Assembly: GCA_965218285.1 (NCBI GenBank)
Contig: OZ244616.1
Coordinates: forward strand, 1,472,133-1,536,132
Direction of reading: 5' to 3'
Origin: Candidatus Poribacteria bacterium
GTDB taxonomy: Bacteria > Poribacteria > WGA-4E > WGA-3G
DNA: 64,000 bases
Shown piece by piece: positions 8,546-59,728 of this stretch. The stretch's first letter is position 1. Every line of letters starts with the position of its first letter. Made by a program: the position numbers and the translations under genes. The notes beneath the pieces are model-generated. The model was not told where the DNA came from, searched no databases, and saw nothing but the letters and a program-made list of their open reading frames with translations.

Positions 8546-8833
8546 ATTAGCGTCAATTTAAGGAAATAAACCTATATTTTGGATATCTTAGCCCCAGCGG
8601 GGCGGAATGTGTATAGACCACGATCCATACCAAACTCAAGCCCCAGCGGGGCGAAAGGTGTATATGGGCACATGTTGTCAGACACCTGTCACCCCGCTGG
8701 GGTTCAAGAGACTGTTGGATACCGTTTTCTATGTACCTGTCGCACCGCTGGTGCTAAGATGTGATTTACCAAAGCTCGGGTAGGCGAAAGATGTATCAGA
8801 CGCACTAACGTTACGCACTAAATTGACGCCTAT
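8546..8833. mobile_element. MITE family B, shortened copy. TIRs ATTAGCGTCAATTTA / TAAATTGACGCCTAT, interior made of REP-like GCCCCAGCGGGGC hairpin units, flanked by a duplicated 22-bp palindromic target.
   Basis: Direct repeats GGTGCGGTTTCCTAACCGCACC lie at 8524-8545 and 8834-8855. Full-length 357-bp copies lie at 49168-49524 and 59260-59616. Confidence 0.75.
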
Positions 8834-9100
8834 GGTGCGGTTTCCTAACCGCACCTACCGCGTTGGGGACCCCTAATTGGAGTTGAAGTGTTAGTGCGGG
8901 GGATTTCTCCCCCGCAAGGAGGAATACCAACTCATAATGAATTGTTATTCGGGGGATATTATTAGTATGCCAAATCAACGTCAAACGTATATAACGTATA
9001 TTTGGCATTCGTCGCCTCTCCCTATGGCGAGATGTTATGTCTTTTGCAACATCGTCATTTACACAGAACCCAAGATGATCTTGGACCTTGCTCTACATTC

Positions 9101-10348: not shown

Positions 10349-10835
10349 TCCTCCTATTATGTATTTGTTGATTTGTAGTGCTGCGGTTGATTTCGTGCAA
10401 AATGAACAATAATTTGTCTTTGCTAATCCGTAGAGACCTCTTTATCGGAAACTTTGAATCAAGTTAATTTGGTATAATAGCTTTGATATTTCTAAGTTCT
10501 AACTATACATATAAGCCATATCAAGACGAATAATTATGTTTAGCATATAATTATCATATACACGTCTTATTAGGGTTAATTATACTCAACTTCACCATAT
10601 ATGTCAATTAAATCTCACGAAAAATGTTAATCTACTGTAAATGTGTAAATGATTTATATCAAATTTCCGAATTTCAGGGTTTAGTCAACTTCCTGTCAAA
10701 TCAACGCTACATAGGTTTTGGCATTCGAAAAAATCGGGTTTACAAACCCTCCTACAAGAGACTGTAGTTGATGTTAGTAACTTTACACACCCAAAAGAAA
10801 AATTAATTTGATTAAAAAGAAAATATATTATATAA

Positions 10836-11282
10836 TTTATCGAGTTTCGGTGTCAAAACCCAATGCTTTAGCTTTGGGATGTAGACACCGCCCTCTTGTA
10901 TTAGACCAAAACTTTTTCTTGACATAAAACACGATTCTTGCTATAATCTCTTTTCGTAACTCCACGGGTTGTGAGCAGGCGTTCTGGGTGCTACATACCG
11001 AGTGAACTCACGTAAAGTTGCGACACAAGCGGTAGAAGTCTTTGACACCAGATAGTTGCTGATGGAAGCTTAGAGTGTAATGGGAAAGAGTGGTAGGACA
11101 CCATCCCGAAAACAGCACTCTCAAAAATGTTCATAAGACACCTTCGGGTGTGCAGGCGGGGCATCGTCTGTTGGAGTAGAGGGTGTTAGACTTGCTTAGC
11201 AAGCAACCCTTGTTGATACCACAATCTACACAGCAGGTGGGACAAAAGAACCCCACTGCTTTAGCTGTGGGAGTATGTCAGA
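10836..11282 (+). mobile_element. 447-bp ORF-less element with IS200/IS605-like subterminal hairpins and an internal consensus sigma70 promoter (copy A, intergenic).
   Basis: Identical to 47313-47759 across the shared 447 bp as read. Left hairpin CCCAATGCTTTAGCTTTGGG at 10859-10878 and right hairpin CCCACTGCTTTAGCTGTGGG at 11252-11271 share the loop TGCTTTAGC. No ORF longer than 60 aa. Confidence 0.7.
10919..10947 (+). promoter_or_regulatory. Consensus sigma70 promoter inside the 447-bp element: TTGACA, 17 bp, TATAAT.
   Basis: TTGACA at 10919-10924, a 17-nt spacer, and TATAAT at 10942-10947. The same promoter lies at 47396-47424 in copy B. It would drive an about 330-nt non-coding transcript toward the right end of the element. 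Confidence 0.6.
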
Positions 11283-11314
11283 ATTAACATTGTGGTACTA
11301 TGTTATACTAACTA

Positions 11315-11390
11315 TAGTTTGGACAATTTCTATCTGTTTCATGTTGTTTTCTCAAGTCCTTTCTATTTTTCTACGAGTTTTGTGTGAAGT
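11315..11390. repeat. Intergenic repeat family D (TTTGGACAATTT..TGTTTCATGTTG...TTTCTATTTTTCTACGAGTTTTGTG). Second copy at 17775-17870.
   Basis: About 75-90% identical stretches at 11315-11390 and 17775-17870. The motif AATTGTCCAAA recurs at least seven times in intergenic DNA (11700, 17775, 18061, 18275, 18541, 22068). Confidence 0.5.
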
Positions 11391-11414
11391 TGTAACCCAC
11401 AGAAAAACTATTAT

Positions 11415-11549
11415 AACGTGAGTTTGATAAAAACAAGATGTCGGGCTTCTCGTAGGGGCGAGGTCTTCTCCCCCGTAGGGGTTAGGTTACCTAACCCCTA
11501 CGAAAATGTCCATTTATGTTTAGAATTTGCTATATATCAAACTCACGTT
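11415..11549. mobile_element. MITE family E, about 135 bp, with 15-bp TIRs AACGTGAGTTTGATA / TATCAAACTCACGTT (copy 1).
   Basis: Perfect TIRs, flanking ATTAT duplicated, internal hairpin CGTAGGGGTTAGGTTACCTAACCCCTACG. Confidence 0.75.
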
Positions 11550-11569
11550 ATTATAGGTTCAGCAAAGGC

Positions 11570-11640
11570 AGCCCCAGCGGGGCGAAAGGTGTATAGAAAC
11601 GCGGGTGAACAACCCTCTTAGCCCCAGCGGGGCGAAAGGT
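11570..11640 (+). repeat. REP-like doublet: two direct copies of AGCCCCAGCGGGGCGAAAGGTGT separated by 21 bp.
   Basis: The same unit builds the interior of MITE-B. A second stand-alone doublet lies at 18420-18500 followed by the same about 90-bp downstream sequence (..TAAGGTGTTTCC.TTGACC..AAAAATTGTCCAAAG..). Confidence 0.7.
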
Positions 11641-11733
11641 GTCCCAATAAATCTTATATTGATGTCTAAGGTGTTTCCATTGACCTTGACTATCACTCAA
11701 GAACTCTAAAAATTGTCCAAAGTATAGTATACT

Positions 11734-11866
11734 AACGTGAGTTTGATAAAACAAGATGTCGGGCTTCTCGTAGGGGCGAGGTCTTCTCGCCCGTAGGGGT
11801 TAGGTAACCTAACCCCTATGAAAATGTCCGTTTATGTTTAGAATTTGCTATATATCAAACTCACGT
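11734..11866. mobile_element. MITE family E, copy 2, in direct orientation 185 bp from copy 1.
   Basis: Same TIRs, TATACT duplicated at the flanks, a few point differences from copy 1. A REP doublet lies between the two copies at 11570-11640. Confidence 0.75.
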
Positions 11867-17765: not shown

Positions 17766-18106
17766 ATTATAATAAAGTTTGGACAATTTTTGTTTGTTTC
17801 ATGTTGAGTTTTCAAGTGTTTTTCTATTTTTCTACGAGTTTTGTGCGGGTCGAAACTCGTAGAAAAAGTCTGCTGTCTGAAACGCGTCTGCAAATAAACT
17901 ACCATTAGTCAGTGCGTCAGGTTTTTCGGTTATACTAATGGATACTGAGTGTGTGAAGCACTGCTTCAACCTCAAGTGGTGGGTCATCTTTTTGCGGGGA
18001 GACTTTCGATGTTGGTTTTGTTTTCTGAAAGGATAACCTCTTTTCGGCTTTCTGTTACGAAAATTATTAAAATTGTCCAAATTTTGATAATAGTTAGGTA
18101 ATCATT

Positions 18107-18195
18107 TTATCGAACTTCGGTGTCAAAACCCAATCCTTTGAATCAACGCTGAATGCACGCATGGCATTCAGCGGGTTTGGGATGTAGACACTGCC
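18107..18195 (+). repeat. Partial copy of the left end of the 447-bp IS200/IS605-like element.
   Basis: TTTATCGAACTTCGGTGTCAAAACCCAAT...TTTGGGATGTAGACAC matches the first about 60 bp of the element at 10836. An extra internal hairpin GCTGAATGC...GCATTCAGC is present. It lies about 500 bp upstream of a TnpB C-terminal remnant. Confidence 0.5.
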
Positions 18196-18594
18196 TTCGT
18201 GTCCCAGACCAAAGCGTGGGACAGAGAAAAAACAGTTGAGATATTTTATAGGTTTTGTTATAATATCTACTAAAGTTTGGACAATTTGTGTGATATTCAG
18301 GCAGCCCTTTCAAGCCGTAAGGCGTGCTTTGGCTCGAAAATCTGTCTAATATTCTGCGATTTTGTTTCTTTAAGACAACTCACAGAAAAAGCGACTTCGG
18401 ATCCAGCAAACAGCAGCCCCAGCAGGGCGACAGGTGTATAGAAAACCAAGCCCCTCACGACATTCAAGCCCCAGCGGGGCGATAGGTGTATAGAAAATCT
18501 TATACGAATGCATAAGGTGTTTTCGTTGACCCAGCCTATTGAACGAGAATTCTTAAAAATTGTCCAAAGCTTAGTAATATCTATAGCATTGCTA

Positions 18595-18690
18595 GTAATA
18601 CCAAATTAACTTGATTCAAAGTTTTCTAATAGCGGTTAGCATTGCGAGGCACGGGGACCTCGCACTACAAATCCCGTTAATTGGGTATAA
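18595..18690. mobile_element. MITE family C copy, reverse orientation, with a different central hairpin (GCGAGGCACGGGGACCTCGC).
   Basis: Ends TAATACCAAATTAACTTGATTC ... CCGTTAATTGGGTATAAT are the reverse complement of the family C TIRs. Confidence 0.55.
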
Positions 18691-18699
18691 TGTCTTAAG

Positions 18700-18900
18700 C
18701 ATGGTAGACATTTGTTGAAAGTTGATCGTTGGATAGCGACTACGAAGCCTTGTTCTGAGTGCGGATATAAAAATGAAAATCTCTCTCTTGAAGATAGACA
18801 TTGGATATGCCCCGAATGTGGTTCTCACCCGATAGAGATGTCAACGCTGCTATCAACATTTTCATGGCGGGCTTAGTCGCCACTGTGGAGCAGACATAAG
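18700..18900 (+). pseudogene. tnpB: Frameshifted C-terminal remnant of an IS200/IS605-family TnpB (RuvC-III / zinc-finger end).
   Basis: Reading-frame pieces KVDRWIASTKPCSECGYKNENLSLEDRHWICPECGS and then, in the +1 frame, DRDVNAAINIFMAGLVATVEQT*. This is the characteristic TnpB C-terminus. No intact N-terminal part is present. Confidence 0.65.
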
Positions 18901-19010
18901 ACCTTTTAAAGAAGGCGAACTGCGACGAAGCACAAGCACAACCCTCTGAGTTTGGGTACTATGACAAATAAGTGTAAAAGAATTACACCACTTCAGAACA
19001 TAGGAGTCAT

Positions 19011-21170
19011 ATGCTAATGAAGAAAAATATAATCTCAAAAAAGCAACAACCTACCGAAAAACGCGCTTTTACTCGACGTGATTTCCTTTCAACCAGTATG
19101 AAAGCTGGTGCTGCCGCTTTCACTACAAGTTTTTTACCAACACTTCACGCTTCTGCTGATGAACGATATAATGTCCTATTTATCATGGTTGATGATTTAA
19201 GTACTCTGCTTGGTTGCTATGGTCATCCAGAGATGCACACCCCTAACATTGACAAAATTGCTGATCAAGGCGTCGTCTTTGACCGGGCGTACTGCCAATA
19301 TCCACTTTGTGGCCCGTCACGAGCTTCGCTTCTGACTGGATTACGTCCTGACACAACGGGAATAATGGATAACTGGCCTAGTCCTGCAGATAGGTTACCG
19401 GGCATTACTATTCCTCAACATTTCAAAGATCAAGGTTATCACACACGCTCTGTCAGTAAAATTGCCCACTCGTGGTATGCATGGACAGATAGAGTTTCTT
19501 GGAGCAAACCGATATGGAAGCTGAGTTTTGAGGACGAGTATTTTGGTGCTAAACCAAGGGATTGGAAGATACTTGATGTTGCCGATGATGAACTCCGAGA
19601 TGGAAGAGCTGCCCGTGAGGCGGTAAAAGTGATGAATGAGATAAAAGAGTTGCCATTTTTTCTTGCCGTTGGTTTTGACAGGCCTCATACTCCCTACCAC
19701 GCGCCACGAAAATATTTCGATCTATATTCGCCAGAAGATTTCACCTTACCAACACATTCAAGTCTACCCGAAAATGCACCATTGTTCTCTATTTCTAATG
19801 AGTCGTTTAGGAATTCTGATGAGGTCACATTGCAATTTACGCATGCTTACGCTGCATGTATAAGTTATGTAGATGCTCAGGTTGGGTTATTGCTTGAACA
19901 GCTTGAGAATTTGGAGTTGGCTGAAAAGACAATCATCGTCCTGATGGGGGACCATGGCTATCACATCGGGGAGCATGCTCGGTGGCAAAAAGACACACTA
20001 TTTGAGGTAGGTGTGCGTTCCCCGTTGATTGTTAGCGTTCCCGGGCAGTCGCATGTTGGTGTCACAACAGATGCCCTCGTTGAACTCGTGGATATTTTTC
20101 CGACATTATGTGATGCATGCGAATTGCCGATTCCGAGCGAACTTGAAGGGCAAAGTTTTGTTCCGGTTATTGAAGAACCGACACGCCAGTGGAAATCTGC
20201 GGCGTTTAGCCAACTCAGACGGACGAATGCGGAAACTTGGTACAGGAGATATTCGCTATCATCTCTCACTGGGATTGAAATCACAGATAACAACAGTGTA
20301 GATGGTTACTCCATGCGCACTGATCGATATCGATACACCGAGTGGAGGGCATATTCTGAACATGGTGAGAAACTCGCCGATGTCGGTGTTGAACTCTACG
20401 ATTATCAGACTGATCCCGATGAAACCGTCAATATAGCGAATCTTCCGGAGAATGCAGAACTTGTCGTACAACTTAGTGAACAACTTCAATTGGGATGGCA
20501 ACATGCTTTGCCTGGAATGCAAGAAGGAAGCACTGCTGTTTCACCAAACTTTCCATGGGATATAAACGAGGATGGTATTGTGGATATTCAGGATCTGCTT
20601 CTCGTCTCGGAAAATTTTGGGATAGCAATTCAGGAATATCCTAAGGCTGACGTTAACCAAAATGGTAGCGTTGATATTATTGACCTCCTTTTAGTCGCAG
20701 CACATTTGGGTGAATCCAATAATCCATCAGCTCCGCTGGCGCACACCGAAATATTACCCGAACATTTTGACATTTTGCAGAAACGTCTTTCTGAAGCCCG
20801 TTTAGCCGATGATGGTTCTGCTCTTTTTCACAAGGGGATTTCGGTTTTAGAAACTCTGCTGAATGCTGCTATTCCAAAAAAGACTGTGTTACTGCCTAAC
20901 TATCCAAATCCTTTTAATCCAGAAACTTGGATACCCTATGATTTAGCACAGGATGCAGATGTAAAGATACACATCTATGATTTAAATGGCAAATCTATCC
21001 ATCAATTATCTCTTGGTTTCCAGACCGCTGGTACCTATCATTCTCAATCGCGTGCAGCGTATTGGGATGGAAAGAATTCTGCTGGAGAGTATGTTTCGAG
21101 CGGGGTCTATTTTTTTACACTATACGCTGGACAAATTCAAACTACACGCAAAATGGTTGTCAGAAAATAA
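19011..21170 (+). CDS. Formylglycine-dependent sulfatase with Tat-like signal, dockerin-like repeat pair and T9SS/FlgD-like C-terminal sorting domain.
   Basis: RRDFLSTSMKAGAAAF twin-arginine signal. Sulfatase signature CQYPLCGPSRASLLTG (C-x-P-x-R). Dockerin repeats DINEDGIVDIQDLLLV and DVNQNGSVDIIDLLLV. CTD LLPNYPNPFNPETWIPY...YWDGKNSAGEYVSSGVYFFTL. Confidence 0.85.
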   Translation: MLMKKNIISKKQQPTEKRAFTRRDFLSTSMKAGAAAFTTSFLPTLHASADERYNVLFIMVDDLSTLLGCYGHPEMHTPNIDKIADQGVVFDRAYCQYPLCGPSRASLLTGLRPDTTGIMDNWPSPADRLPGITIPQHFKDQGYHTRSVSKIAHSWYAWTDRVSWSKPIWKLSFEDEYFGAKPRDWKILDVADDELRDGRAAREAVKVMNEIKELPFFLAVGFDRPHTPYHAPRKYFDLYSPEDFTLPTHSSLPENAPLFSISNESFRNSDEVTLQFTHAYAACISYVDAQVGLLLEQLENLELAEKTIIVLMGDHGYHIGEHARWQKDTLFEVGVRSPLIVSVPGQSHVGVTTDALVELVDIFPTLCDACELPIPSELEGQSFVPVIEEPTRQWKSAAFSQLRRTNAETWYRRYSLSSLTGIEITDNNSVDGYSMRTDRYRYTEWRAYSEHGEKLADVGVELYDYQTDPDETVNIANLPENAELVVQLSEQLQLGWQHALPGMQEGSTAVSPNFPWDINEDGIVDIQDLLLVSENFGIAIQEYPKADVNQNGSVDIIDLLLVAAHLGESNNPSAPLAHTEILPEHFDILQKRLSEARLADDGSALFHKGISVLETLLNAAIPKKTVLLPNYPNPFNPETWIPYDLAQDADVKIHIYDLNGKSIHQLSLGFQTAGTYHSQSRAAYWDGKNSAGEYVSSGVYFFTLYAGQIQTTRKMVVRK

Positions 21171-23022: not shown

Positions 23023-25323
23023 TTGAAACTTTTCACATTTTCCGAATCAACTCGTACACAGTCCTCAAGCCGGAACTTGGGACTCACTCATCTCATCAGT
23101 CTAATTTTCACTGTGTTCATGCTTTTTATTACACCACACTGGATAGCAACTGCACAGACCGTCCAGATTCCGGACCCCAATCTCCGTGCTGCCCTTGAGT
23201 TAGCATTAGACAAAGAAGCAGGTGCCGACATCACTCAGGCGGAGATGGCAAGTTTGGAATCACTCCAAGCTAGCAAATGTCGCTTTTTGATGTTGTCGGA
23301 AATTGGACGGTGGGTGGCACACCGATGGGAATGTCAGTCTCCTAAAGATGGAGAGGATGCTCTTCGTGAAGCGTTGATGCTCAGTTTTGAATCCGGTATT
23401 CAAAATTTAACAGGTCTTGAGTTTGCTACCAATCTAACACACCTCTCTCTTAGTCTCAATCGTATATCAGATTTGTCTCCACTCAAAAATTTGATAAATT
23501 TGACACACCTCTCTCTTGGTCTCAATCGTATATCAGATTTGTCTTCACTCAAAAATTTGACAAATTTGACACACCTCTCTCTCAGATACAACCGTATATC
23601 AGATTTGTATCCACTCAAAAATTTGACAAATTTGATAGAATTGGATATTCAAGACAATCATATATCAGATTTATCATCACTCCAAGATTTGACAAATTTG
23701 ACACACCTCTTTCTTAGAGGAAACCGGATATCTGATGTGTCCCCACTCGAAGATTTGACAGAATTGATAATGCTAGATCTTCAACTCAACGTGATATCTG
23801 ATGTGTCTCGACTCAAAAATTTGATAAAACTGAGACACCTTGATATTGACAACAATGAAATATCTAATGTGTCTCCATTCGAAAATTTGATAAACGTGGC
23901 ATTCTTGGATATTTCCGATAACCGTATTTCAGATTTGTCTCCACTCAAAAATTTGACAAATTTGTCGATAGTGCTGGATATTGACGACAACCAAATTTCA
24001 GATTTGTCTCCACTCAAAAATTTGACAGAGCTGCGTAAACTGGACGCTGACGACAACCAAATTTCAGATTTGTCTCCACTCAAAAATTTGACAAATCTAA
24101 CATGGCTGGATATTGACGACAACCAAATTTCAGATTTGTCTCCACTCAAAAATTTGACAAGACTGACATACCTTGATCTTAACGCAAATCAGATATTTGA
24201 CGTGTCTCCACTTGAAAACTTGATAAATCTAACGGAGTTAGATCTTGACAAGAACGAGATATTTGATGTGTCACCACTCAAAAACTTGACAAATCTGACC
24301 GTTATAGATCTTCATAACAACAAAATATCAGATGTGTCACCACTCAAAAATATGACAAATCTAACAGAATTAGATATTGATGACAATGATATATCAGATG
24401 TGTCACCACTCAAAAACTTGATAAATCTCACGATACTTGACCTTGATGGCAACGAAATATCGGATGTGTCACCACTCAAAAACTTGATAAATCTGACAGA
24501 ACTTGATCTTCACGACAACGAGATATCGGATATATTGCCACTCAAAAACTTAATAAAACTAACAGTGTTAGATCTTAGCGAAAACCAGATAGCGGATTTT
24601 TCACCTATTGCCGGATTAATAGTGAATTTAGTTGAATATGATGCCAGCAACCAATCAGTTCCAACCTACAAACCTGAAGATGTGAACCGAGATGGCACTG
24701 TAAATATAGCAGATCTTGTTTTAGTTGCATCAAATTTTGCCGATCCTGATTTGGAGGCTCTTGCAGGTACAAACATCTATCCGGATGTCAATCATGATGG
24801 TGTTGTTAATCTGATAGACTTGCTCCTTGTTGCGGTAGAGATGGGTTCTGATACTGCAGCCCCCGCACTCAGCAAAAGTCAAGTTGAAACATCTAATCTT
24901 ACTACAGAAAACCTCGTGCAGTGGATTCGACTCGCCAAGAAGATTGATGTCAAAGAGCCGCGTCTCCTAAACGGCATTGCGATCTTAGAGCAACTCTTAG
25001 CACTTCTTAGCACTGTTGAGACATTGCCGAAAGCGACAGCACTGCTGGCAAACTATCCAAATCCGTTTAACCCTGAGACGTGGATACCGTATCAGTTGGC
25101 AAAACCTGCAAAGGTTTGTGTCTCAATTCATTCTACAGATGGGAAACTTGTTAGGATATTGGAGTTGGGGCAGTTGTCTGCAGGCATATATCACAGCAAG
25201 TCCCGCGCGGCATATTGGGATGGTCGGAATGATTTGGGTGAGTCTGTAGCAAGTGGAGTCTATTTCTATACGTTTACCGCAGATGATTTTAGTGCTACCA
25301 GAAAAATGTTCATCCGAAAATAA
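23023..25323 (+). CDS. Leucine-rich-repeat (internalin-like, about 22-aa repeat) surface protein with dockerin-like repeats and a T9SS-like CTD.
   Basis: More than 20 tandem repeats of the LSPLKNLTNLTxLDLxxNxISDVSP type. DVNRDGTVNIADLVLV and DVNHDGVVNLIDLLLV. C-terminal ANYPNPFNPETWIPYQL...YWDGRNDLGESVASGVYFYTF. Confidence 0.8.
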   Translation: MKLFTFSESTRTQSSSRNLGLTHLISLIFTVFMLFITPHWIATAQTVQIPDPNLRAALELALDKEAGADITQAEMASLESLQASKCRFLMLSEIGRWVAHRWECQSPKDGEDALREALMLSFESGIQNLTGLEFATNLTHLSLSLNRISDLSPLKNLINLTHLSLGLNRISDLSSLKNLTNLTHLSLRYNRISDLYPLKNLTNLIELDIQDNHISDLSSLQDLTNLTHLFLRGNRISDVSPLEDLTELIMLDLQLNVISDVSRLKNLIKLRHLDIDNNEISNVSPFENLINVAFLDISDNRISDLSPLKNLTNLSIVLDIDDNQISDLSPLKNLTELRKLDADDNQISDLSPLKNLTNLTWLDIDDNQISDLSPLKNLTRLTYLDLNANQIFDVSPLENLINLTELDLDKNEIFDVSPLKNLTNLTVIDLHNNKISDVSPLKNMTNLTELDIDDNDISDVSPLKNLINLTILDLDGNEISDVSPLKNLINLTELDLHDNEISDILPLKNLIKLTVLDLSENQIADFSPIAGLIVNLVEYDASNQSVPTYKPEDVNRDGTVNIADLVLVASNFADPDLEALAGTNIYPDVNHDGVVNLIDLLLVAVEMGSDTAAPALSKSQVETSNLTTENLVQWIRLAKKIDVKEPRLLNGIAILEQLLALLSTVETLPKATALLANYPNPFNPETWIPYQLAKPAKVCVSIHSTDGKLVRILELGQLSAGIYHSKSRAAYWDGRNDLGESVASGVYFYTFTADDFSATRKMFIRK

Positions 25324-25453
25324 TACCAAATCACTTAATCCATTAAGTTTGGATTTCTGCGTCTCGCGGTTTGTTAAGTTGAAATGTTCTCTTAGAAGAT
25401 CAATATCATTGATGCTTGTAAACGCGTTTTAGGCATGTATATCACGAGGGAAA

Positions 25454-28120
25454 ATGCGAATTTTAATATTGTCATTAGTTGTTTTTTGTTTGCTCCCTAC
25501 AGCGTGGAGTGAAATTCAATTTGAAGATGTCTCACATCAGGTTGGAATCACACGTATTGGTGAAAGTTGGGGAAATGCGTGGGGTGATTTTGACGGAGAC
25601 GGTTACCTTGATTTATGGGTTACTAACCATAAGCACAAACCCAGTCTTTATCGAAATAATGGAAACGGCACTTTTACCGATATAATTGACGAAGTATGGA
25701 ATGCATATCCTTTTGCGGACACACACGGTGTCGCATGGGCAGACTTTGATAATGACGGGGACCAAGATTTGATTGCCTTATGTGGCGGAGGTGGTGGGAC
25801 TAATCGGTCAAACATAACACATTATAATCACTTCTATGTCAATGAAAATGGTAAACTTATTGAGCGCGCTGCTGAATTCGGTATTGACATGCCGTTGCTG
25901 CGAAGTAGGGCACCCCTCTGGTTTGATTGGAACAAGGACGGACTACTTGACTTGCTTGTCACAGGAAAAACCCAAACAGACCAAACAGGAGTGCTTGTGG
26001 CTTCAACGATATTTGAACAAACCCAGGGAACATTTAAGGATGTAAATGCGGAATCAGGGTGCCACATTGAAAAAGATGCCGCATTAGCACAACTTGCTGA
26101 TGTTACCGGTGATGGAACTATGGAAATCTTTGTAGATGGTAGTCTATATCCAGCACATATATATGATACGTCAATTACCCCCTTTAATGATTTAGCTGCT
26201 ACACTTAATTTTCCTAAAGTCTATAGCGTGCAAGATGCAACGTTTGCCGATTTTAATGGTGATCTGGTCCCAGATGCGTTTTTGGCACGTGGGGTGTATA
26301 GATCCTTCATTGATACTTCGGAAGCAGAAACTTTGCGGAACTCAGTCGATCCGCTTGATCCTGAGGTTAATTTTTACAAAATACAAGTAAATGTAAAGAT
26401 TAACACTGGGGAGAAAGGGTTAAGTTTTAAGACAGATGGAATTGTCAAGTTTGAAGTTCATTCCGATTGGGCATCTCAACTCCACCACTTAGCAATCGGA
26501 AAGAATGCGCATAACGTGTATGTTTTTGATGGAGAATACGTCCCAACAGATCGCGAACGAAATGTTTCTTCCTTCACATTTGTGCTTGACCCCGCAGACC
26601 CAAAGGTTGTTGGGTTGGCAGATCGTCCGAAAAACGAGAAATGGAGAACTTATGTGGGGTATGACCCTGATTCAAACCGATGGACAGTATTATACCATAC
26701 AATGCCTCCTATTGACACGAATTGGACAGGATTTGAGGCTCATATATCTGCGAAAAACCCGATAGCAGAAGTTGAACCAATTAATTTCAGCGGCTTTGAT
26801 CTTTCCTATGAACCGAAATCAATACTTTGTATAACAACTCCACCTAACAATTTCCGGAGAATTAATTTTTCTGAGACAGTTGAAGCACGTTCCGTGGCAG
26901 CGGGGGATTTTGACAACGATATGGATGTAGACCTCTATATTGTTCGTTCAAATAGTGCTGCTAATCTGCCCAACCAACTTTATGAAAACCAAGGTGATGG
27001 TTCTTTCATTCAAGTTGCTGGAGCAGGCGGTGCAGAAGCAAACACAGAAGGGAAAGGAATGAGCGTTACGATGGGAGACTACGACATGGATGGTTACCTT
27101 GACCTTTTTGTTACGAATGGTAGAGGGATCTATCCATATAACAATGGTCCGGATCAACTCTACCGTAACATCAGCAGTGGCAATAATTGGATACAGATTG
27201 ATTTGGAGGGGAAAGTTTCAAATAGAGATGGAATCGGTGCGAGATTGTTCGCAACAACACCTGATGGAAAGACTCAGCTTCGCGAACGTAATGGAGGAAT
27301 CCACTGGTCTCAGCAAGACCAGAAACGTATCCATTTTGGGCTTGGACAGAATGAGGTGGTCAGTGAATTGATTATCAATTGGCCAAGCGGCATTGTTCAA
27401 AAGTTAAAGAATGTTGAGGTGAACCAAGTGTTGCGTGTAGTTGAAGATGGAATTCAAACGTTACTCACGGGTGATGTTAATATGGATGGACAAGTTGATA
27501 TTATTGATCTACTTGTAATTGTCGCTCATTTTGGAGAAAGCCCCCCTTCAAATTCAAAGTATGATACAAATAAAGATGGAAAAGTGGATCTTCAAGATGT
27601 CATTTTGGTAATTAAGAGTATTGAAGAAAACCAGAATGGTACTGCAGCACCACCCCAAACACCCATTCCCAAAATTAAAGCCACCGATATCTACTCCCTT
27701 TCAGATCATCACATTGCACTCCTCCACGCATTTTACGAAAAAATTGAAGAATTGTCTGATGATACTACACAAATATCAATAGTGAAACGTTTTTTAGAGA
27801 ATCTGTTGATGCCTGCTGATGGTCCTCTGAAAACGAAACTTTTCGCAAACTATCCTAACCCGTTTAATCCGGAGACATGGATTCCTTATCAACTCGCTGA
27901 GAATGCAGAAATTACCATACGTGTATATAACACTGCTGGTAAGACAGTGCGGACACTCTTCACTGGGCATCAAACGTCAGGATTTTATATCAATCGTGAG
28001 CGAGCCGCATATTGGGATGGCTCTAACGAATTTGGAGAAGCTGCCGCAAGCGGTCTATACTTTTACGAATTGTCCACGCCTACATCTAAACAGACGAGAA
28101 AATTAGTCATCATAAAATAA
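25454..28120 (+). CDS. CRTAC1/ASPIC-UnbV-type FG-GAP repeat protein with dockerin-like repeats and a T9SS-like CTD.
   Basis: N-terminus FEDVSHQVGITRIGESWGNAWGDFDGDGYLDLWVTNH. Repeated FG-GAP Ca-binding loops DxDxDG. GDVNMDGQVDIIDLLVIVAH. C-terminal ANYPNPFNPETWIPYQL...YWDGSNEFGEAAASGLYFYEL. Confidence 0.75.
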   Translation: MRILILSLVVFCLLPTAWSEIQFEDVSHQVGITRIGESWGNAWGDFDGDGYLDLWVTNHKHKPSLYRNNGNGTFTDIIDEVWNAYPFADTHGVAWADFDNDGDQDLIALCGGGGGTNRSNITHYNHFYVNENGKLIERAAEFGIDMPLLRSRAPLWFDWNKDGLLDLLVTGKTQTDQTGVLVASTIFEQTQGTFKDVNAESGCHIEKDAALAQLADVTGDGTMEIFVDGSLYPAHIYDTSITPFNDLAATLNFPKVYSVQDATFADFNGDLVPDAFLARGVYRSFIDTSEAETLRNSVDPLDPEVNFYKIQVNVKINTGEKGLSFKTDGIVKFEVHSDWASQLHHLAIGKNAHNVYVFDGEYVPTDRERNVSSFTFVLDPADPKVVGLADRPKNEKWRTYVGYDPDSNRWTVLYHTMPPIDTNWTGFEAHISAKNPIAEVEPINFSGFDLSYEPKSILCITTPPNNFRRINFSETVEARSVAAGDFDNDMDVDLYIVRSNSAANLPNQLYENQGDGSFIQVAGAGGAEANTEGKGMSVTMGDYDMDGYLDLFVTNGRGIYPYNNGPDQLYRNISSGNNWIQIDLEGKVSNRDGIGARLFATTPDGKTQLRERNGGIHWSQQDQKRIHFGLGQNEVVSELIINWPSGIVQKLKNVEVNQVLRVVEDGIQTLLTGDVNMDGQVDIIDLLVIVAHFGESPPSNSKYDTNKDGKVDLQDVILVIKSIEENQNGTAAPPQTPIPKIKATDIYSLSDHHIALLHAFYEKIEELSDDTTQISIVKRFLENLLMPADGPLKTKLFANYPNPFNPETWIPYQLAENAEITIRVYNTAGKTVRTLFTGHQTSGFYINRERAAYWDGSNEFGEAAASGLYFYELSTPTSKQTRKLVIIK

Positions 28121-38370: not shown

Positions 38371-40464
38371 ATGAAGCAAAAAATAATCTCACAAGCACAA
38401 GAACAATCTTCAAAAAATCGCTCTTTTACCCGACGTGATTTCCTTTCAACGAGTTTGAAAGCCGGTGCTGCTGCTGCTTTCACTACAAGTCTTTTACCGA
38501 CATTTAACGCTTCCGCTGATGAACGATATAATGTTCTATTTATCATGGTTGATGATTTACGTCCTCTGCTCGGTTGCTATGGTCATCCAGAAATGCATAC
38601 ACCTAACATTGATAGACTTGCCCAAAGGGGAACGCTCTTCAATCGTGCCTATTGTCAATATCCTCTCTGCAGCCCTTCCCGCACTTCAATGTTAACAGGT
38701 CTCAGACCAGATACAACCCGCGTTACAAATAATAGAGCCTTTTTTCGTCAGACTGCACCTAATACCGTTACGCTACCACAACATTTCAAAACTTACGGCT
38801 ACCATACACAATCGGTTGGTAGAGTATTCCATCTCCCAGAATTTCAGGACGATGCAAACTCTTGGAGTGTTCCATCATGGAGACCGAGGTGGAGACCCTT
38901 TGATCACGAGACGACTCCATCTTGGCAAGCACTTGAGGCAGAAGATGATGATCTTAGAGATGGCGAAACGGCAAAACGAACAGTTGAAGTGTTGGATAAG
39001 ATCAAAAACAAACAATTCTTTTTGACTATTGGATTTTATAAACCTCATTTACCCTACAACGCTCCAAAAAAGTATTTCGATTTATATGACATCGAAACCT
39101 TCAGTATACCTGACATTTTAGATGAATCCACAGCAGAGATAATACCACCCCATTGGAATGAAGTTAGACCTTTTGAAGATGTTCCATCAGGGGCAACACC
39201 GTTGACGTATGAAAAAATGTTGGAACTTATCCGCGCTTATGCTGCTGCAACAAGTTACACAGATGCGCAAATAGGACGGGTATTGGATCAACTTGATGCA
39301 CTTGGACTCACAGAAAATACAGTTATTGCTTTTTGTGGTGACCATGGATACCACCTTTCCGAAAACGGAACATGGGGCAAAAATATCATTTATGATGCGA
39401 CGTTACATTCACCTTTGATTGTCAGCATGCCCGGGCAAGGTACAATTGGCACTACAACAGATGCCCTTGTTGAGCTTGTTGATATTTTTCCTACATTTTG
39501 CGACGCATGTCAAATTCCAATTTTGGATGAATTGGAAGGATTTAGTATGGTTCCGGTCATTGAAGAACCTACACTCACGTGGAAAACAGCTGCTTTCAGT
39601 CAGTTCAAACAATCACGCTCCATCAGAACTGATCAATATAGATACACTGAAACTGGTAGACTTAAAGAACTTTATGATTACGGTACTAACACGAATTCTG
39701 AACAGAACATCGCTAATTTTCCTGAAAATGCAGATCTGGTTGCAAACCTCAGCGAACGCCTCCATGCTGGCTGGCAAGCAGCATTACCTGAAATCCCACC
39801 CCGTGTCCCTCATGCTCAAACGCTAACGTGGGACGTAAACAGTGATGGTGTTGTTGATATTCAAGATCTTCTTTTGGTTTCAAACAGTTTTGGGGCAGAT
39901 GTACTTGAAAATCCGAAAATAGATGTAAATAAAGATGGAACCGTTGATATTATCGATTTGCTTTTAGTCGCATCACATATAGGTGAACCCCGCAATGCAG
40001 CACCGAGTTTAAGTACACTCCCGCTTCAGTATGTTGACGACATTGAAGAATGGATTTCTGAAGCCCGTTTAGTTGATGATGGTTCTACCATTTTTCGCAA
40101 GGGAATTGCAAACTTAGAAACCTTGATAAATTCAGTTATACCAAAACAGAGCGTGCTTCTCCCCAACTTTCCAAACCCCTTTAATCCAGAGACATGGATA
40201 CCTTACGATTTGGCTGAAGATGCTGATGTCAATATCCACATCTACAATCTAAAAGGTGAATCTGTGAAACAACTTAGCATTGGCTTTCAAGCTGCTGGTA
40301 GTTATAGGACACAATCACGTGCAGCATTTTGGGATGGACGCAATTCTACTGGCGAACCTGTCGCCAGTGGAACCTATTTTTACGCATTGACAGCACGATA
40401 TAGAGATAACACCTTATCTCAAAACCCTCTTATAGCAACACGCCGAATGGTAATTGTAAAATAG
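38371..40464 (+). CDS. Formylglycine-dependent sulfatase with Tat signal, dockerin-like repeats and a T9SS-like CTD.
   Basis: RRDFLSTSLKAGAAAAF. CQYPLCSPSRTSMLTG. DVNSDGVVDIQDLLLV and DVNKDGTVDIIDLLLV. LLPNFPNPFNPETWIPY. The first about 200 nt are near-identical to the paralog at 19011, which suggests recent duplication or gene conversion. Confidence 0.85.
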   Translation: MKQKIISQAQEQSSKNRSFTRRDFLSTSLKAGAAAAFTTSLLPTFNASADERYNVLFIMVDDLRPLLGCYGHPEMHTPNIDRLAQRGTLFNRAYCQYPLCSPSRTSMLTGLRPDTTRVTNNRAFFRQTAPNTVTLPQHFKTYGYHTQSVGRVFHLPEFQDDANSWSVPSWRPRWRPFDHETTPSWQALEAEDDDLRDGETAKRTVEVLDKIKNKQFFLTIGFYKPHLPYNAPKKYFDLYDIETFSIPDILDESTAEIIPPHWNEVRPFEDVPSGATPLTYEKMLELIRAYAAATSYTDAQIGRVLDQLDALGLTENTVIAFCGDHGYHLSENGTWGKNIIYDATLHSPLIVSMPGQGTIGTTTDALVELVDIFPTFCDACQIPILDELEGFSMVPVIEEPTLTWKTAAFSQFKQSRSIRTDQYRYTETGRLKELYDYGTNTNSEQNIANFPENADLVANLSERLHAGWQAALPEIPPRVPHAQTLTWDVNSDGVVDIQDLLLVSNSFGADVLENPKIDVNKDGTVDIIDLLLVASHIGEPRNAAPSLSTLPLQYVDDIEEWISEARLVDDGSTIFRKGIANLETLINSVIPKQSVLLPNFPNPFNPETWIPYDLAEDADVNIHIYNLKGESVKQLSIGFQAAGSYRTQSRAAFWDGRNSTGEPVASGTYFYALTARYRDNTLSQNPLIATRRMVIVK

Positions 40465-40530
40465 AGTTAAATTAATCATTGAAGATAGCTTGTTAGCAGA
40501 ATTCAAAGTCTGTGAAGGGATAAGAATTTA

Positions 40531-42549
40531 GTGAAAAAAACAATAGAAAACCAGGTTATTCCACGTTCCTATACTCGGCGTGACTTTCTTTCAACGAGCC
40601 TCAAGGTTGGTGCGACTGCCTTTACAACAAGTTTGTTACCACGTCTAAATGCAAAAGCTGAAGGAAAGCATAATGTATTGTTCATGATTGTGGATGATTT
40701 GCGTCCTATGCTTGGTTGCTACGGCATTCCTGATATGCACACCTCAAACATTGACAGTTTAGCTGCACGTGGAACACTCTTCAATCGTGCCTATTGCCAA
40801 TACCCACTTTGTAATCCTTCTCGGGCTTCTATCCTAACAGGGTTGCGTCCGGAGACAACAGGAGTACACGACAATTCCGCAGATTATAAAATCACAGTGC
40901 CAGACGCGGTGGATGTGTACCAACATTTTATGGAACAAGGTTATAAAACATATACTGTAGGAAAAGTGGGGCACTATCCTGCCCCTTTTACTCATGGTCC
41001 ATCTTGGAATGCCCTTGATGTTTCAGACGACGAACTAAGTGATGGTAAAACTGCAAAACAGACAGAGGAACTTTTAGAAAATATTAAAGACCAACAATTT
41101 TTCTTAGCTGTTGGCTTCGACAAACCACATTTACCCTTACATGCCCCTCAAAAATATTTCGAATTATACAATCCAAATCCCTTTATATTACCCCCTACTT
41201 CAAGTTATCCACTTAATTCACCACCTGATGCCCACAACAAGATAGATTTATTTAGACTTTATCGGGATATTCCATCTGGTGACGAGCCTATTTCTGTTGA
41301 GAAAACATTAGAATTGATTCGCGCTTATGCGGCTTCAACAAGTTATATGGATGCACAAGTTGGTCGTGTCCTGCGTCAATTGGACACACTTGGGTTGACT
41401 AATAACACAGTTATTGTTTTCTGTGGTGATCACGGTTTTCATCTTGGTGAGCATGGGACATGGCGGAAAAATACACTTTTTGAGATTGGTGTTCGTTCAC
41501 CTTTACTTATCAGTGTTCCAGGACAACAGCCGTGCCAGACAAATTCCTTGGTAGAATTGGTAGACATCTATCCTACTTTGTGCGACGCATGTGAACTTCC
41601 AATTCCTTCACAGTTAGAAGGTTTAAGCTTAATGCCTTTAGTAGAAGAACCGACCCTCCCTTTGAAAAGTGCTGCTTTCAGTTATCTAACCCGAGCAGGA
41701 TCTAAATCCACTTCAATGCGTACCGAAAGATACCGATACACAGAATGGGGAAGGATAGGTAAATTCGGCAGTGAACTTTACGATTATCTTGATGATCCGA
41801 ATGAGACCGTTAATGTAGTCGATCTTCCAGAAAATGCAGAACTTGTTGAAGATCTAAGTAATCGGCTGCGTGCCGGTTGGAAAGAAGCAATGTCTAATGT
41901 TCAGGGACATATCCCAATTCCACATGCACTTCCTTGGGATATAAATAATGATGGGATTGTGGACATGCAAGACCTAATCCTCGTCTCAAACAGTTTTGAT
42001 GAAGAAACACTTGAATATCCGAAAGCAGATGTGAATAATGATGGAAATATTGATATTATTGATTTGCTCATAATAGCTGCACATCTTGGAGAATCCTGCA
42101 CCGCCTCAGCTCCGTCAACACCTTTATCTGTTTCCCCAAACCATCTTGACAGTATCGCAGAATGGCTCACTGAAGCCTACCAAGCAGATGATGGGTCCGA
42201 TGTCTATCGCCACGGGATTGTCAACTTAGAAGCTCTCTTTAATAACGTAGTCCCACAAAAAACTACTCTTCTACCGAACTTCCCAAATCCATTTAATCCG
42301 GAAACGTGGATACCTTACGACTTGGCACAGGATGCGAATGTGGACATCAAAATATATAATCTCAAGGGAGAAACTATCAGAGAACTCAAAATAGGATTCC
42401 AAAACGCGGGCACTTATCGCACCAAGGAACTGGCAGCATATTGGGATGGACGTAATTCAGCTGGTGAACCTGTCACAAGTGGGGTCTATTTTTATACCCT
42501 CTTTGCTGATCAGGTAAAAGCAACACGCCGAATGGTAATCCGCAAATAA
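40531..42549 (+). CDS. Formylglycine-dependent sulfatase with Tat signal, dockerin-like repeats and a T9SS-like CTD.
   Basis: RRDFLSTSLKVGATAF. CQYPLCNPSRASILTG. DINNDGIVDMQDLILV and DVNNDGNIDIIDLLII. LLPNFPNPFNPETWIPY. Confidence 0.85.
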   Translation: MKKTIENQVIPRSYTRRDFLSTSLKVGATAFTTSLLPRLNAKAEGKHNVLFMIVDDLRPMLGCYGIPDMHTSNIDSLAARGTLFNRAYCQYPLCNPSRASILTGLRPETTGVHDNSADYKITVPDAVDVYQHFMEQGYKTYTVGKVGHYPAPFTHGPSWNALDVSDDELSDGKTAKQTEELLENIKDQQFFLAVGFDKPHLPLHAPQKYFELYNPNPFILPPTSSYPLNSPPDAHNKIDLFRLYRDIPSGDEPISVEKTLELIRAYAASTSYMDAQVGRVLRQLDTLGLTNNTVIVFCGDHGFHLGEHGTWRKNTLFEIGVRSPLLISVPGQQPCQTNSLVELVDIYPTLCDACELPIPSQLEGLSLMPLVEEPTLPLKSAAFSYLTRAGSKSTSMRTERYRYTEWGRIGKFGSELYDYLDDPNETVNVVDLPENAELVEDLSNRLRAGWKEAMSNVQGHIPIPHALPWDINNDGIVDMQDLILVSNSFDEETLEYPKADVNNDGNIDIIDLLIIAAHLGESCTASAPSTPLSVSPNHLDSIAEWLTEAYQADDGSDVYRHGIVNLEALFNNVVPQKTTLLPNFPNPFNPETWIPYDLAQDANVDIKIYNLKGETIRELKIGFQNAGTYRTKELAAYWDGRNSAGEPVTSGVYFYTLFADQVKATRRMVIRK

Positions 42550-46678: not shown

Positions 46679-47870
46679 CTATCTGGTGGAAATTTGCCCA
46701 CGCATATAAGAACCTTCATCGGAAGCCAGAAACGTCAGCACTCTCGCAACACCAGCGGGATCACCCAAGGATTTCACCGCATTGGCAACGGCTTCATCCG
46801 GGTCTTTTCCATCAAGTTTTGCAGACTGCGCAATTTGTCCGAGTTTAAGCGGTGTAGCGAGTCCACCAGGGCATATCGTGTGTATGCGGATGTTAAGTGA
46901 AGCGACTTGGTTTTCTACTGTCATCACAAGACCGTTAACACCGCCTTTGCTTGAAGCGTAAGCGATTGATGAACTTCCACCGCGAATCCCCGCCCCTGAA
47001 GCAATGCAGAGGATAACACCCCCGCCACTATTTCCCATTATAGGCACAGCATGTTTGAGCGCAAAAAAAGTGCCTTTAAGGTTAACATCAATTACTGAAT
47101 CAAAAGTTGCCGCATCAAAATCTTCTATACGGACACTTGCTCCCTGCAAGATACCCGCACAAGTCACTAAAGTATCAATTCGACCATACGTATCTTCAGC
47201 AGCATGCATTAGATTGGAGACGTCGACTTCAGAAGTGACATCGGTGTAACAGAATTTAGCATCACCGCCATTTTTCGTTATTATTTTTAACGTCTCTTGT
47301 CCATCAAGTCCGTTTATCGAGTTTCGGTGTCAAAACCCAATGCTTTAGCTTTGGGATGTAGACACCGCCCTCTTGTATTAGACCAAAACTTTTTCTTGAC
47401 ATAAAACACGATTCTTGCTATAATCTCTTTTCGTAACTCCACGGGTTGTGAGCAGGCGTTCTGGGTGCTACATACCGAGTGAACTCACGTAAAGTTGCGA
47501 CACAAGCGGTAGAAGTCTTTGACACCAGATAGTTGCTGATGGAAGCTTAGAGTGTAATGGGAAAGAGTGGTAGGACACCATCCCGAAAACAGCACTCTCA
47601 AAAATGTTCATAAGACACCTTCGGGTGTGCAGGCGGGGCATCGTCTGTTGGAGTAGAGGGTGTTAGACTTGCTTAGCAAGCAACCCTTGTTGATACCACA
47701 ATCTACACAGCAGGTGGGACAAAAGAACCCCACTGCTTTAGCTGTGGGAGTATGTCAGATCTCCCATAACAACTTTAGCCCCTGCTTCAGCGTATGCAAG
47801 GGCAGTCGCAGCACCGATACCTGTTGCCGCACCAATTACCGCAACCTTATCTGAGAGTTGGATATTCACT
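46679..47870 (-). pseudogene. Short-chain dehydrogenase/reductase gene interrupted by a 447-bp element inserted after codon about 40.
   Basis: The N-terminal Rossmann segment VNIQLSDKVAVIGAATGIGAATALAYAEAGAKVVMGD is encoded at 47870-47760. The rest (GLDGQETLK...YASSKGG...) is encoded at 47312-46679. The catalytic YxxxK is read as YASSK. Precise removal of 47313-47759 restores one continuous in-frame ORF. Confidence 0.75.
47313..47759 (+). mobile_element. 447-bp IS200/IS605-like ORF-less element, copy B, inserted in the SDR gene in antisense orientation.
   Basis: Identical to 10836-11282 across the shared 447 bp as read. Carries the consensus promoter at 47396-47424. No target duplication, which is consistent with IS200/IS605-type insertion. 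Confidence 0.7.
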
Positions 47871-49081: not shown

Positions 49082-49653
49082 CAGGGTTATTTAGTTTTAA
49101 GAATTATCAGTTGATGAGTGTTACTGATAGTTTATTTCGTAGGTCGGGTAGAGCGGTAGCGAAACCCATAGGCGTCAATTTAAGGAAATAAACCTATATT
49201 TTGGATATCTTAGCCCCAGCGGGGCGGAATGTGTATAGACCACGATCCATACCAAACTCAAGCCCCAGCGGGGCGAAAGGTGTATATGGGCACATGTTGT
49301 CAGACACCTGTCACCCCGCTGGGGTTCAAGAGACTGTTGGACACCGTTTTCTATATACCTGTCGCCCCGCTGGGGCTAAAGAGTTGTGGGTATCACTTTT
49401 TCTATACACCTGTCGCCCCGCTGGGGCTAAAGAGTTGTGGGTGCTTTCGTTGCTATAAACATATCGTCCCTACGGGACTAAAGAGGGTTTCTCGGACACG
49501 GAAAACCACTAAATTGACGCTTATGGGTAGAGCGGTAGCGAAACCCGACATGAACTAAACGTGTCGGGTTTCGCAAACTCTACCCAACGGACAGGTAGTT
49601 TATATAGAAATGTGAAAAAATATAGCAGAAAAACCGAAAACTAAATAACCCTG
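49082..49653. mobile_element. MITE family A, copy 2, with a 10-bp TSD CATCATCAAG, carrying a nested MITE family B insertion.
   Basis: TIRs CAGGGTTATTTAGTTTT / AAAACTAAATAACCCTG. CATCATCAAG at 49072-49081 and 49654-49663. The internal palindrome arm GGGTAGAGCGGTAGCGAAACCC is duplicated around the nested element. Confidence 0.8.
49168..49524 (+). mobile_element. MITE family B, full-length 357 bp, nested inside MITE-A. Interior is a tandem array of REP-like GCCCCAGCGGGGC hairpin units in both orientations.
   Basis: TIRs ATAGGCGTCAATTTA / TAAATTGACGCTTAT. A 22-bp direct repeat GGGTAGAGCGGTAGCGAAACCC flanks it at 49146-49167 and 49525-49546. Two about 40-bp tandem units TATACACCTGTCGCCCCGCTGGGGCTAAAGAGTTGTGGGT are present. 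The ORFs 49201-49458 and 49229-49558 from the ORF track are artefacts of this repeat. Confidence 0.8.
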
Positions 49654-58951: not shown

Positions 58952-59259
58952 TCAATGTTCAATGTATACATCTACAATCTCCCGTACCGATGATGAATTT
59001 ACAACACAAAAAATATTGGGAGATATAACAATTCTTTGGTCCCCGTAAGATGTGCTAAGAGATGAAAACTTATGAGATATGGTAACCAAATAATATCTTT
59101 TGAATTTCAGAATTACCCTGTTTTAAACATTAATCTTCTTAATTATACCTTAAAATACACCAAATTGCAACTATACCTGTGCTAAAGGCAGAGCCATTCA
59201 ATTTCCATTTTCGGTCTGGCTTTACCCGGATCCGGTAGATGTGGTTTCCTAACCGCACC

Positions 59260-59616
59260 ATAGGCGTCAATTTAGTGGTTTTCCGTGTCCGAGAAACCCT
59301 CTTTAGTCCCGTAGGGACGATATGTTTATAGCAACGAAAGCACCCACAACTCTTTAGCCCCAGCGGGGCGACAGGTGTATAGAAAAAGTGATACCCACAA
59401 CTCTTTAGCCCCAGCGAGGCGACAGGTATATAGAAAACGGTGTCCAACAGTCTCTTGAACCCCAGCGGGGTGACAGGTGTCTGACAACATGTGCCCATAT
59501 ACACCTTTCGCCCCGCTGGGGCTTGAGTTTGGTATGGATCGTGGTCTATACACATTCCGCCCCGCTGGGGCTAAGATATCCAAAATATAGGTTTATTTCC
59601 TTAAATTGACGCCTAT
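59260..59616 (-). mobile_element. MITE family B, full-length copy in inverse orientation relative to 49168-49524.
   Basis: Same 357 bp with a handful of point differences. Flanked by 20-22-bp direct repeats TGTGGTTTCCTAACCGCACC / GATGCGGTTTCCTAACCGCACC. The ORF-track ORFs 59139-59555 and 59326-59583 are artefacts. Confidence 0.8.
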
Positions 59617-59728
59617 GATGCGGTTTCCTAACCGCACCTTCCAGGCAGCAGGTTCTTAGCGCGTAACTCTTTTCTCAAATTGATACTGATGGGTTGAACA
59701 ACGGTTAACTTAGATAGTGAAGTGAGAA

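Follow-up and report, generated by a model that had tools for sequence, protein, structure and literature searches.

Two identical copies of a 441-bp element in a Poribacteria genome

A stretch of 64,000 nt from the sponge-associated Candidatus Poribacteria bacterium (GCA_965218285.1, OZ244616.1:1,472,133-1,536,132, forward strand; hereafter the window) contains two identical copies of a short element without a protein-coding gene, one of which is intergenic (copy A), while the other (copy B) lies antisense within a gene for a short-chain dehydrogenase (SDR) and splits it in two (Table 1). An earlier note on this sequence had described two identical 447-bp intervals (10836-11282 and 47313-47759) with same-loop hairpins near both ends, a perfect TTGACA-17-TATAAT promoter aimed at the right end and no open reading frame (ORF), and these observations were all borne out. 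The intervals are 100% identical over 447 bp with the flanking bases differing at positions -1 and +1, the promoter scores 12/12 in copy A as in copy B, and there is no conserved ORF, as the longest is 57 aa, the short ORFs of family members differ, and none is common to eight of them.

Table 1. Coordinates of the two element copies, their parts and associated features in the window
Feature	Position	Strand	Remarks
SDR gene	46679..47869	-	Split by copy B: 47869-47759 and 47317-46679
Copy B, 441-bp ORF-less IS200/IS605-type element (palindrome-associated transposable element, PATE)	47318..47758	+	Antisense in SDR gene; empty-site comparison
Target / transposon-adjacent motif (TAM) TTTAT (core TTAT)	47313..47317	+	SDR-gene flank outside element; orthologue empty site
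Left-end imperfect palindrome	47326..47366	+	Lower stem GGTGTC/GACACC; upper hairpin 47336-47355
AAAA	47332-47335	+	Adjoins foot of upper hairpin on 5' side; position of IS608 left DNA guide
Sigma70-type promoter TTGACA-17-TATAAT	47396..47424	+	TG extended -10; reads toward right end; scan 12/12
5' RNA domain, ~190 nt	47431..47622	+	Bounded by motifs GGUUGUGAG and UGUUCAUAAG, able to pair; ends in CAC-loop-GUG hairpin
omegaRNA-scaffold homologue	47623..47758	+	Covariance model match 47623-47756; stops at right end
GAAC	47725-47728	+	5' of right hairpin foot
Right-end hairpin plus 10 nt	47729..47758	+	CCCAC-TGCTTTAGCT-GTGGG (47729-47748); cleavage motif TCAG 47755-47758
Predicted guide segment of read-through RNA	47759..47778	+	ATCTCCCATAACAACTTTAG; guide role predicted from TnpB model (PMC10055086)
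Copy A, intergenic	10841..11281	+	Identical to copy B; empty site in relative L035
Copy A target TTTAT	10836-10840	+	
Copy A promoter	10919-10947	+	
Copy A scaffold	11146-11281	+	
Copy A predicted guide	from 11282	+	AATTAACATTGTGGTA...
Decayed TnpB-encoding relative	18111..18965	+	Left end with enlarged hairpin loop, promoter, nested insertion of terminal-inverted-repeat type, right end ...GTTTGGGTACTATGAC

Comparison with empty sites in related loci (L numbers) showed that the true element is 441 bp (CGAG...GTCAG). The rebuilt SDR has dozens of 250-aa Poribacteria orthologues, the best with 98% and 95% identity, and all of these read ...VVMGDINELDGQ... across the junction with N39 invariant; the comparison with empty SDR alleles proposed in the earlier note thus yielded intact genes without the insert, which rule out that the 447 bp are a conserved part of the SDR gene. 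In the orthologue DNA, taken from syntenic TonB_C / SDR / Bac_transf loci, GTTTAT directly abuts ATCTCC (in window orientation ...CATCAAGTTCGTTTAT / ATCTCCCATAAC..., with the junction ...GTTTAT / ATCTCCCATAAC...), while the window reads ...GTTTAT-CGAGTTTCGG...GTATGTCAG-ATCTCC..., the part between the hyphens being inserted DNA. Because the empty alleles keep TTTAT and ATCTCC, the element is delimited to the 441 bp given in Table 1. The empty site of copy A (AATTTAT / AATTA) was found in relative L035, in which the neighbouring gene is 94% identical and the sequence reads ...ATAATTTAT / AATTAGCATTGTGG... (right side also given as AATTAGCATTG). At both empty sites the insertion lies 3' of TTAT and neither duplicated the target nor removed a base.

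The surplus 6 bp of the 447-bp interval are the left TTTAT, which is target, and a final A that is the same in both copies by chance. A target TTATC with the element starting at GAG was ruled out, as the orthologue DNA shows that the C is part of the element and that the last A lies in the flank. Deletion of the 447 bp, previously described as rejoining the SDR gene in frame, does restore the frame, but merely since 6 is a multiple of 3; this interval is not the element, and its removal would cost the gene the conserved I38-N39.

The element has been mobile recently, because there is no difference between its copies and each site is without an insert in relatives that are 94-98% identical. The SDR gene in the window also has a 3-nt deletion that removes T13 of the TGxxxGIG motif, plus an E40G change, and as one codon of this motif has been lost, the split gene is, judged by its sequence, now decaying. 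An exact look-up of the 415-aa neighbour protein of the window found nothing on record. An intron or IStron in the SDR gene was considered and rejected, as the RNA strand of the element is antisense to the gene and no intron model matched; an inverted-repeat MITE (miniature inverted-repeat transposable element) was likewise rejected for the 441-bp element, though such elements occur nearby.

The element ends follow IS608-type geometry

The hairpins at the left end (CCCAA-T-GC-TTTA-GC-T-TTGGG) and right end (CCCAC-T-GC-TTTA-GC-T-GTGGG) are in direct orientation on one strand, with a single base-pair difference between them. As single-stranded DNA, the left palindrome folds with -11.9 kcal/mol (z -3.7 versus shuffles), and its upper stem covaries across genomes (GC..GC versus CC..GG), with both end hairpins covarying in relatives. 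TTAT was located directly 5' of 27/29 independent left ends. The distance between cleavage point and hairpin foot is 18 nt at the left end (on the 5' side) and 10 nt at the right end (on the 3' side), comparable with the IS608 element of Helicobacter pylori, where the corresponding distances are 19 and 10 nt and the cleaved tetranucleotides are read by 4-nt DNA guides located 5' of each hairpin (PMC3201880).

Such guide/motif pairs were present at both ends. The left end has AAAA/TTAT, the right end has GAAG/TCAC in TnpB-encoding elements and most ORF-less units (both described below), and GAAC/TCAG in the window unit and in relatives L007 and L011, with GAAT/TCAA in L018, the end of which was placed by spacing only. 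Counting AAAG/TTAC of IS608, the fourth guide base and the last motif base thus occur in all four Watson-Crick combinations. The window element therefore shares with IS608 the top-strand subterminal hairpins, the insertion 3' of a tetranucleotide without duplication, and a four-base DNA guide 5' of each hairpin, with pairing between its final base and that of the motif. It differs from IS608 in its target (TTAT, not TTAC) and left guide (AAAA, not AAAG), in lacking tnpA and tnpB in cis, and in having its left hairpin nested in a longer palindrome (GGTGTC/GACACC).

The promoter/terminator scans of copy A and copy B did not detect a terminator-like site between the promoter and the right flank, and a promoter at the equivalent position drives tnpB in full-length relatives. 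The left end of copy A (GGTGTCAA) also provides a minus-strand TTGACA, which together with a flanking TATAAT at a spacing of 18 nt gives a second 12/12 promoter-like site directed outward (10827-10856, - strand); this is probably a chance hybrid, because its -10 part is flank sequence.

Relatives of the element encode TnpB

An exact scan with the left-end pattern, using one genome per species, identified 23 loci, all in Candidatus Poribacteria assemblies and representing at least 12 genomes, and a metagenome scan added 7 loci. Most of these loci match the window unit over the first ~75 nt only. Twelve genome loci consist of the left end, a TTGAC-17-TATAAT promoter, a leader of ~100 nt, an ORF of ~375-405 aa and a right end ...CCCAAGTCTTTAGGCTTGGGTCTATCAC, with a total length of ~1.47 kb. 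The ~400-aa ORF of these elements contains OrfB_IS605 and Cas12f1-like_TNB domains, and is thus TnpB. Among ~20 family copies, none carried a tnpA in cis. Eight further distinct loci harbor ORF-less units, 428-539 bp in size and related to the window unit along the greater part of its length, with interior blocks 100% conserved between genomes in which the remainder is ~70% identical.

Within the window, a decayed TnpB-encoding relative is present between the two copies, confirming the earlier description of a third, partial left end close to a decayed TnpB C-terminus. Its left end starts at 18111, and the C-terminal remnant of tnpB (18691-18896) was recognised by Pfam (Cas12f1-like_TNB), tblastn and nhmmer (E 1e-26), while its right end resembles that of L017. 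On sequence comparison, the 441-bp unit is a descendant of Poribacteria elements that encode TnpB only. The proposed loss of both tnpA and tnpB thus holds in so far as neither gene is present in the element, but the parent family encodes only tnpB.

In the TnpB elements of Poribacteria, the mRNA leader of tnpB, located downstream of the left-end promoter and ahead of the ATG, forms a conserved pseudoknot of ~100 nt. It was found in L001, L005, L008-L010, L012-L015, L017, L020, L023, L025, L029 and L006 (for example L005:3207-3312, - strand), and has helices P1, P2 and P3 and a 7-bp pseudoknot helix, with the single strands (U/C)ACCCA and GGGGUUAAAG. Plain MAFFT alignment gave 98.4% paired cells and a compensatory change in 18/33 pairs, and the covariance model of the leader matched 16 copies, several of which were outside the building set. 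There was no Rfam match at gathering score in L005 and L017, the leader-bearing loci scanned, and the leader model had no match in the window or in any ORF-less element. The 3' arm of P1 recurs just before the ATG, and this arrangement suggests a possible switch controlling TnpB translation.

The 3' part of the element is homologous to the TnpB guide RNA scaffold

The 3' side of the ORF-less unit was compared with the final 169 nt of nine TnpB elements, which run from the codons for ...NILKEGVASFGLGVVRP through the right end and cover the region that encodes TnpB guide RNAs. These have a 48-pair consensus structure, with compensatory changes in 12 pairs. A covariance model (R1) built from these nine sequences alone, with no ORF-less sequence used, was run on the whole window with filters off, and its best two matches were the two copies of the element (47623-47756 and 11146-11279, both + strand), each spanning the full model length with 25.3 bits (E about 1e-5) and ending at the right end, while the next match had 12 bits. 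R1 also matched every class-1 ORF-less relative at E 1e-10 to 1e-24. An indirect chain leads to the same scaffold, as the window unit matches the ORF-less relative L004 (blastn, 1.5e-47), which in turn matches R1 with 61 bits. In contrast, a sequence-only profile of the 3' ends of TnpB elements matched the pseudogene (18706-18904) and not the 441-bp element, so that a structure-aware model or the L004 chain was needed for the link to the TnpB scaffold.

In the combined family alignment, 94.8% of cells pair and 32/48 pairs display double changes, compared with 14.9 +/- 2.2 in shuffled and 9-11 in slid controls; these counts lean toward the model, because the alignment was fitted to R1. The first stem is AAGGAAG/CTTCCTT in TnpB elements, GGGTTG/CAACCC in L004 and CAGGCG/CGTCTG in the window, and one hairpin of the window unit is shortened (CTTGC-TTA-GCAAG). 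Since the ORF-less lineages keep the helix while its sequence changes, this pattern argues that the scaffold RNA is still under selection. A covariance-model search for omegaRNA, as had been suggested, thus found both copies as the best matches of R1. The structured RNA of ~330 nt proposed previously is omegaRNA-like in its 3' 135 nt, but the 5' 190 nt have no omegaRNA likeness.

A second class of ORF-less elements (L007, 589 bp; L011, 577 bp; L018, 578 bp; and possibly L021) has the same left end and promoter, combined with a different and well-conserved interior (such as GTTCTGAAGTAGGAGATACCTACCAGAAGTATCGGTCG and ACTTCACGTGGAAGTGGTGCTAAAACCTAAAGAACC) and a right end of the type GGGAGcGGTCAG, like the window unit. 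Neither R1 nor Rfam matched this class.

A conserved 5' domain is restricted to ORF-less elements

ORF-less relatives in other genomes share the conserved ~190 nt between promoter and scaffold (nhmmer E 1e-47 to 1e-72), in which one block of 30 nt does not differ from genome to genome. This domain has no detectable counterpart in TnpB-encoding elements, either by nhmmer with the --max setting or with the covariance model of the tnpB leader. RNAalifold predicted a closing helix of GGUUGUGAG and UGUUCAUAAG, with one-sided changes only and a consensus energy of -5 kcal/mol, and the interior is unalignable between the two sequence subgroups. Pairing of GGUUGUGAG with the conserved CCACAA strand of the scaffold was also considered, for which the data are too thin. 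The conserved block ACATACCGAGTGAACTCACGTAAAG had 0 matches in metagenome_contigs, and a shorter version had 0 in viral_contigs.

A guide-RNA-only element probably used and mobilised in trans

The evidence from the left end, the geometry and target rule, and the covariance model supports the earlier suggestion of a PATE-like IS200/IS605 derivative with a promoter and an omega-like RNA. In our assessment the 441-bp unit is probably a PATE that is mobilised in trans and expresses its own omegaRNA for a TnpB likewise acting in trans. Of the two parts of this reading, the structural identification of the element is close to certain, while the functional part, the use of the omegaRNA in trans, is favoured with more modest confidence.

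In the corresponding model, based on Meers et al. (PMC10055086), a Y1 TnpA from a gene located elsewhere would excise and insert the top strand, rejoining TTTAT to the right flank, with the DNA guides AAAA and GAAC allowing TnpA to recognise TTAT and TCAG. Mobilisation in trans is inferred because no TnpA was found in the window or fetched loci, as it is likewise inferred for most TnpB-only elements (PMC10055086). The internal promoter would transcribe ~330 nt of the element together with the first 16-20 nt of the right flank, and TnpB supplied in trans would trim this transcript to the omegaRNA. After excision, the omegaRNA-TnpB complex may cut the empty allele, which has TTAT followed by the same flank (predicted TTTAT-ATCTCCCATAACAACT), and recombination after cleavage would then reinstate the element. 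The empty alleles L031 and L032 read TTTAT-ATCTCCCATAACAACTTTAG, and thus have the same sequence as the predicted guide of copy B. Read-out antisense into the SDR gene, as proposed in the earlier note, is expected in this model, but would simply be the guide segment that is normal for such an RNA.

Several results weigh against this interpretation. The scaffold of the window is well diverged, with 25 bits compared with at least 190 for TnpB-linked scaffolds, and the penultimate helix of R1 is missing. The right-end type of the window otherwise occurs only on other ORF-less elements, and the loci compared did not include a TnpB element with this type of right end. Neither an intact TnpB nor a TnpA turned up in the window or across ~300 kb of fetched loci, which were searched for TnpA with a motif regular expression and with tblastn using an IS608 TnpA query; a cognate protein in this genome is assumed, as none was present in these sequences. 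Rfam had 0 matches at the gathering threshold in the window and 0 in nine related loci, and when the element was searched up to E 10, the best sub-threshold match was HgcC (18.8 bits versus a threshold of 50), with none to HEARO among the weak matches listed. Folding of the single sequence, one of the checks proposed earlier, gave an unremarkable energy (z -0.7 on the + strand, z -1.9 on the - strand), and the structural evidence is comparative. Finally, the model does not account for the 5' 190 nt.

Alternatively, the unit could be a mobilisable but otherwise inert relic, with ends that work with TnpA in trans and an RNA that represents the decaying 3' leftover of tnpB. The weak match to the TnpB scaffold (25.3 bits, with one helix lost), the pseudogene as the sole tnpB in the window, and the failure to find a TnpB element with this right-end type would all fit such a relic. 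However, the ORF-less lineages keep the scaffold helices by compensatory changes without a coding constraint, the consensus promoter is intact, and interior blocks are 100% conserved between genomes in which the remainder is ~70% identical, and we consider this explanation unlikely.

The conservation of the 5' domain raises another alternative, in which it is functional cargo, either a new non-coding RNA or an extension altering the omegaRNA, that was gained by ORF-less elements. Its conservation across several genomes in ORF-less elements, its invariant motifs with the ability to pair, its absence from TnpB-encoding elements and its lack of relationship to the tnpB leader are consistent with this, but there are just two subgroups, with interiors that cannot be aligned to each other, almost no compensatory support and a consensus energy of -5 kcal/mol, and the scans of metagenome_contigs and viral_contigs found no independent context for the domain. 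We consider such cargo very improbable as the explanation of the element. A broader version, in which non-coding RNAs that are self-expressed are shuttled by the IS605 ends and the 5' domain is a gained functional module and not deletion debris, is suggested by the restriction of the domain to ORF-less elements together with the second ORF-less class, with its different interior behind the same left end and promoter; we regard it as unlikely. If true, the 5' domain may substitute in cis for the omegaRNA portion normally located inside tnpB, may control processing or stability, or may act as an independent small RNA.

A role as mobile outward promoter or antisense generator altering the expression of flanking genes would fit the 12/12 promoter score, the lack of a terminator before the right end, and the direction of read-through, which in copy A aims at an ORF starting at 11891 and in copy B runs antisense across the 5' part of the SDR gene, but it is hardly credible, as the same promoter simply drives tnpB in the parents, the SDR gene was already destroyed by the insertion, and a bare promoter would not need an interior conserved as structured RNA.

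Comparison with known guide RNA elements

PATEs are protein-less IS200/IS605 derivatives described in Haloquadratum (PMC3119063), and those of Geobacillus stearothermophilus "often encode omegaRNAs" that are acted on in trans (PMC10055086). The window element is like these in having IS200/IS605 ends, no protein gene, insertion at the target of the family and a scaffold of omegaRNA type at the right end, as well as in its predicted dependence on TnpA and TnpB in trans. Unlike known PATEs, it resides in the phylum Poribacteria, has an extra conserved 5' domain of 190 nt and a consensus promoter located 200 nt upstream of the scaffold and inherited from the parental tnpB promoter, and has a right end that differs in type from that of TnpB elements with the same left end.

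The Poribacteria parents, consisting of left end, promoter, tnpB, omegaRNA and right end, correspond to TnpB-only (IS1341-group) elements with a 3' omegaRNA, such as ISDra2 and ISGst2. The window element retains all of these parts except the ORF and leader; unlike TnpB-only elements it lacks the nuclease gene, and its scaffold is shortened, with one hairpin truncated and one helix replaced. Many HEARO RNAs lack an adjacent ORF, and the window element is like such an orphan HEARO (IscB omegaRNA) in being the guide-RNA gene of an IS200/IS605 relative without its nuclease gene. In contrast to the window element, HEARO RNA lies 5' of iscB and has the guide at its 5' end.

The type of element is therefore already known, and this is a well-documented further example, which leaves the current view of how IS200/IS605 guide-RNA elements work unchanged. 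It represents a cleanly bounded guide-RNA-only IS200/IS605 element in an uncultivated phylum of sponge symbionts, for which both empty sites, the TAM TTAT, the pairs of DNA guide and cleavage site, and a covariance-supported scaffold are known. For the compact TnpB nucleases of Poribacteria it also supplies predicted sequences of TAM, guide and scaffold, and it documents the recent knockout of a gene by a guide-RNA-only element.

Other repeats and paralogous genes in the window

Downstream of copy A, at a distance of 28 bp, a segment of ~557 bp (11310-11866) is absent from relative L035, and is thus another insertion. It has inverted ends (ACTATAGTTTGGACAATTT / AAATTGTCCAAAGTATAGT), TTATACT flanks, direct repeats of 120 nt and CCCCAGCGGGGCGAAAGGTGTATAGAAA units. 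Related ends are located near 17770-17790, 18065-18085, 18268-18290 and 18555-18580, and the same ends were found inside the decayed TnpB element at 18111-18965.

Large repeats were located at 8519-8870, 49167-49526 and 59223-59643, comprising an inverted pair of 360 nt with 99% identity and copies of 214-239 nt with 95-97% identity. They are made up of 51-nt tandem units (..CCCCGCTGGGGC..) and GGTGCGGTTTCCTAACCGCACC hairpins, and belong to a separate family of small repeated elements. Finally, the large ORFs at 19011-21170, 23023-28120 and 38371-42549 are paralogous, with sulfatase-like N-termini and dockerin-like DVN.DG..DI.DLL repeats, and share a C-terminus (PNYPNPFNPETWIPY...YF) resembling a sorting-type tail, which is typical of Poribacteria and unrelated to the element.

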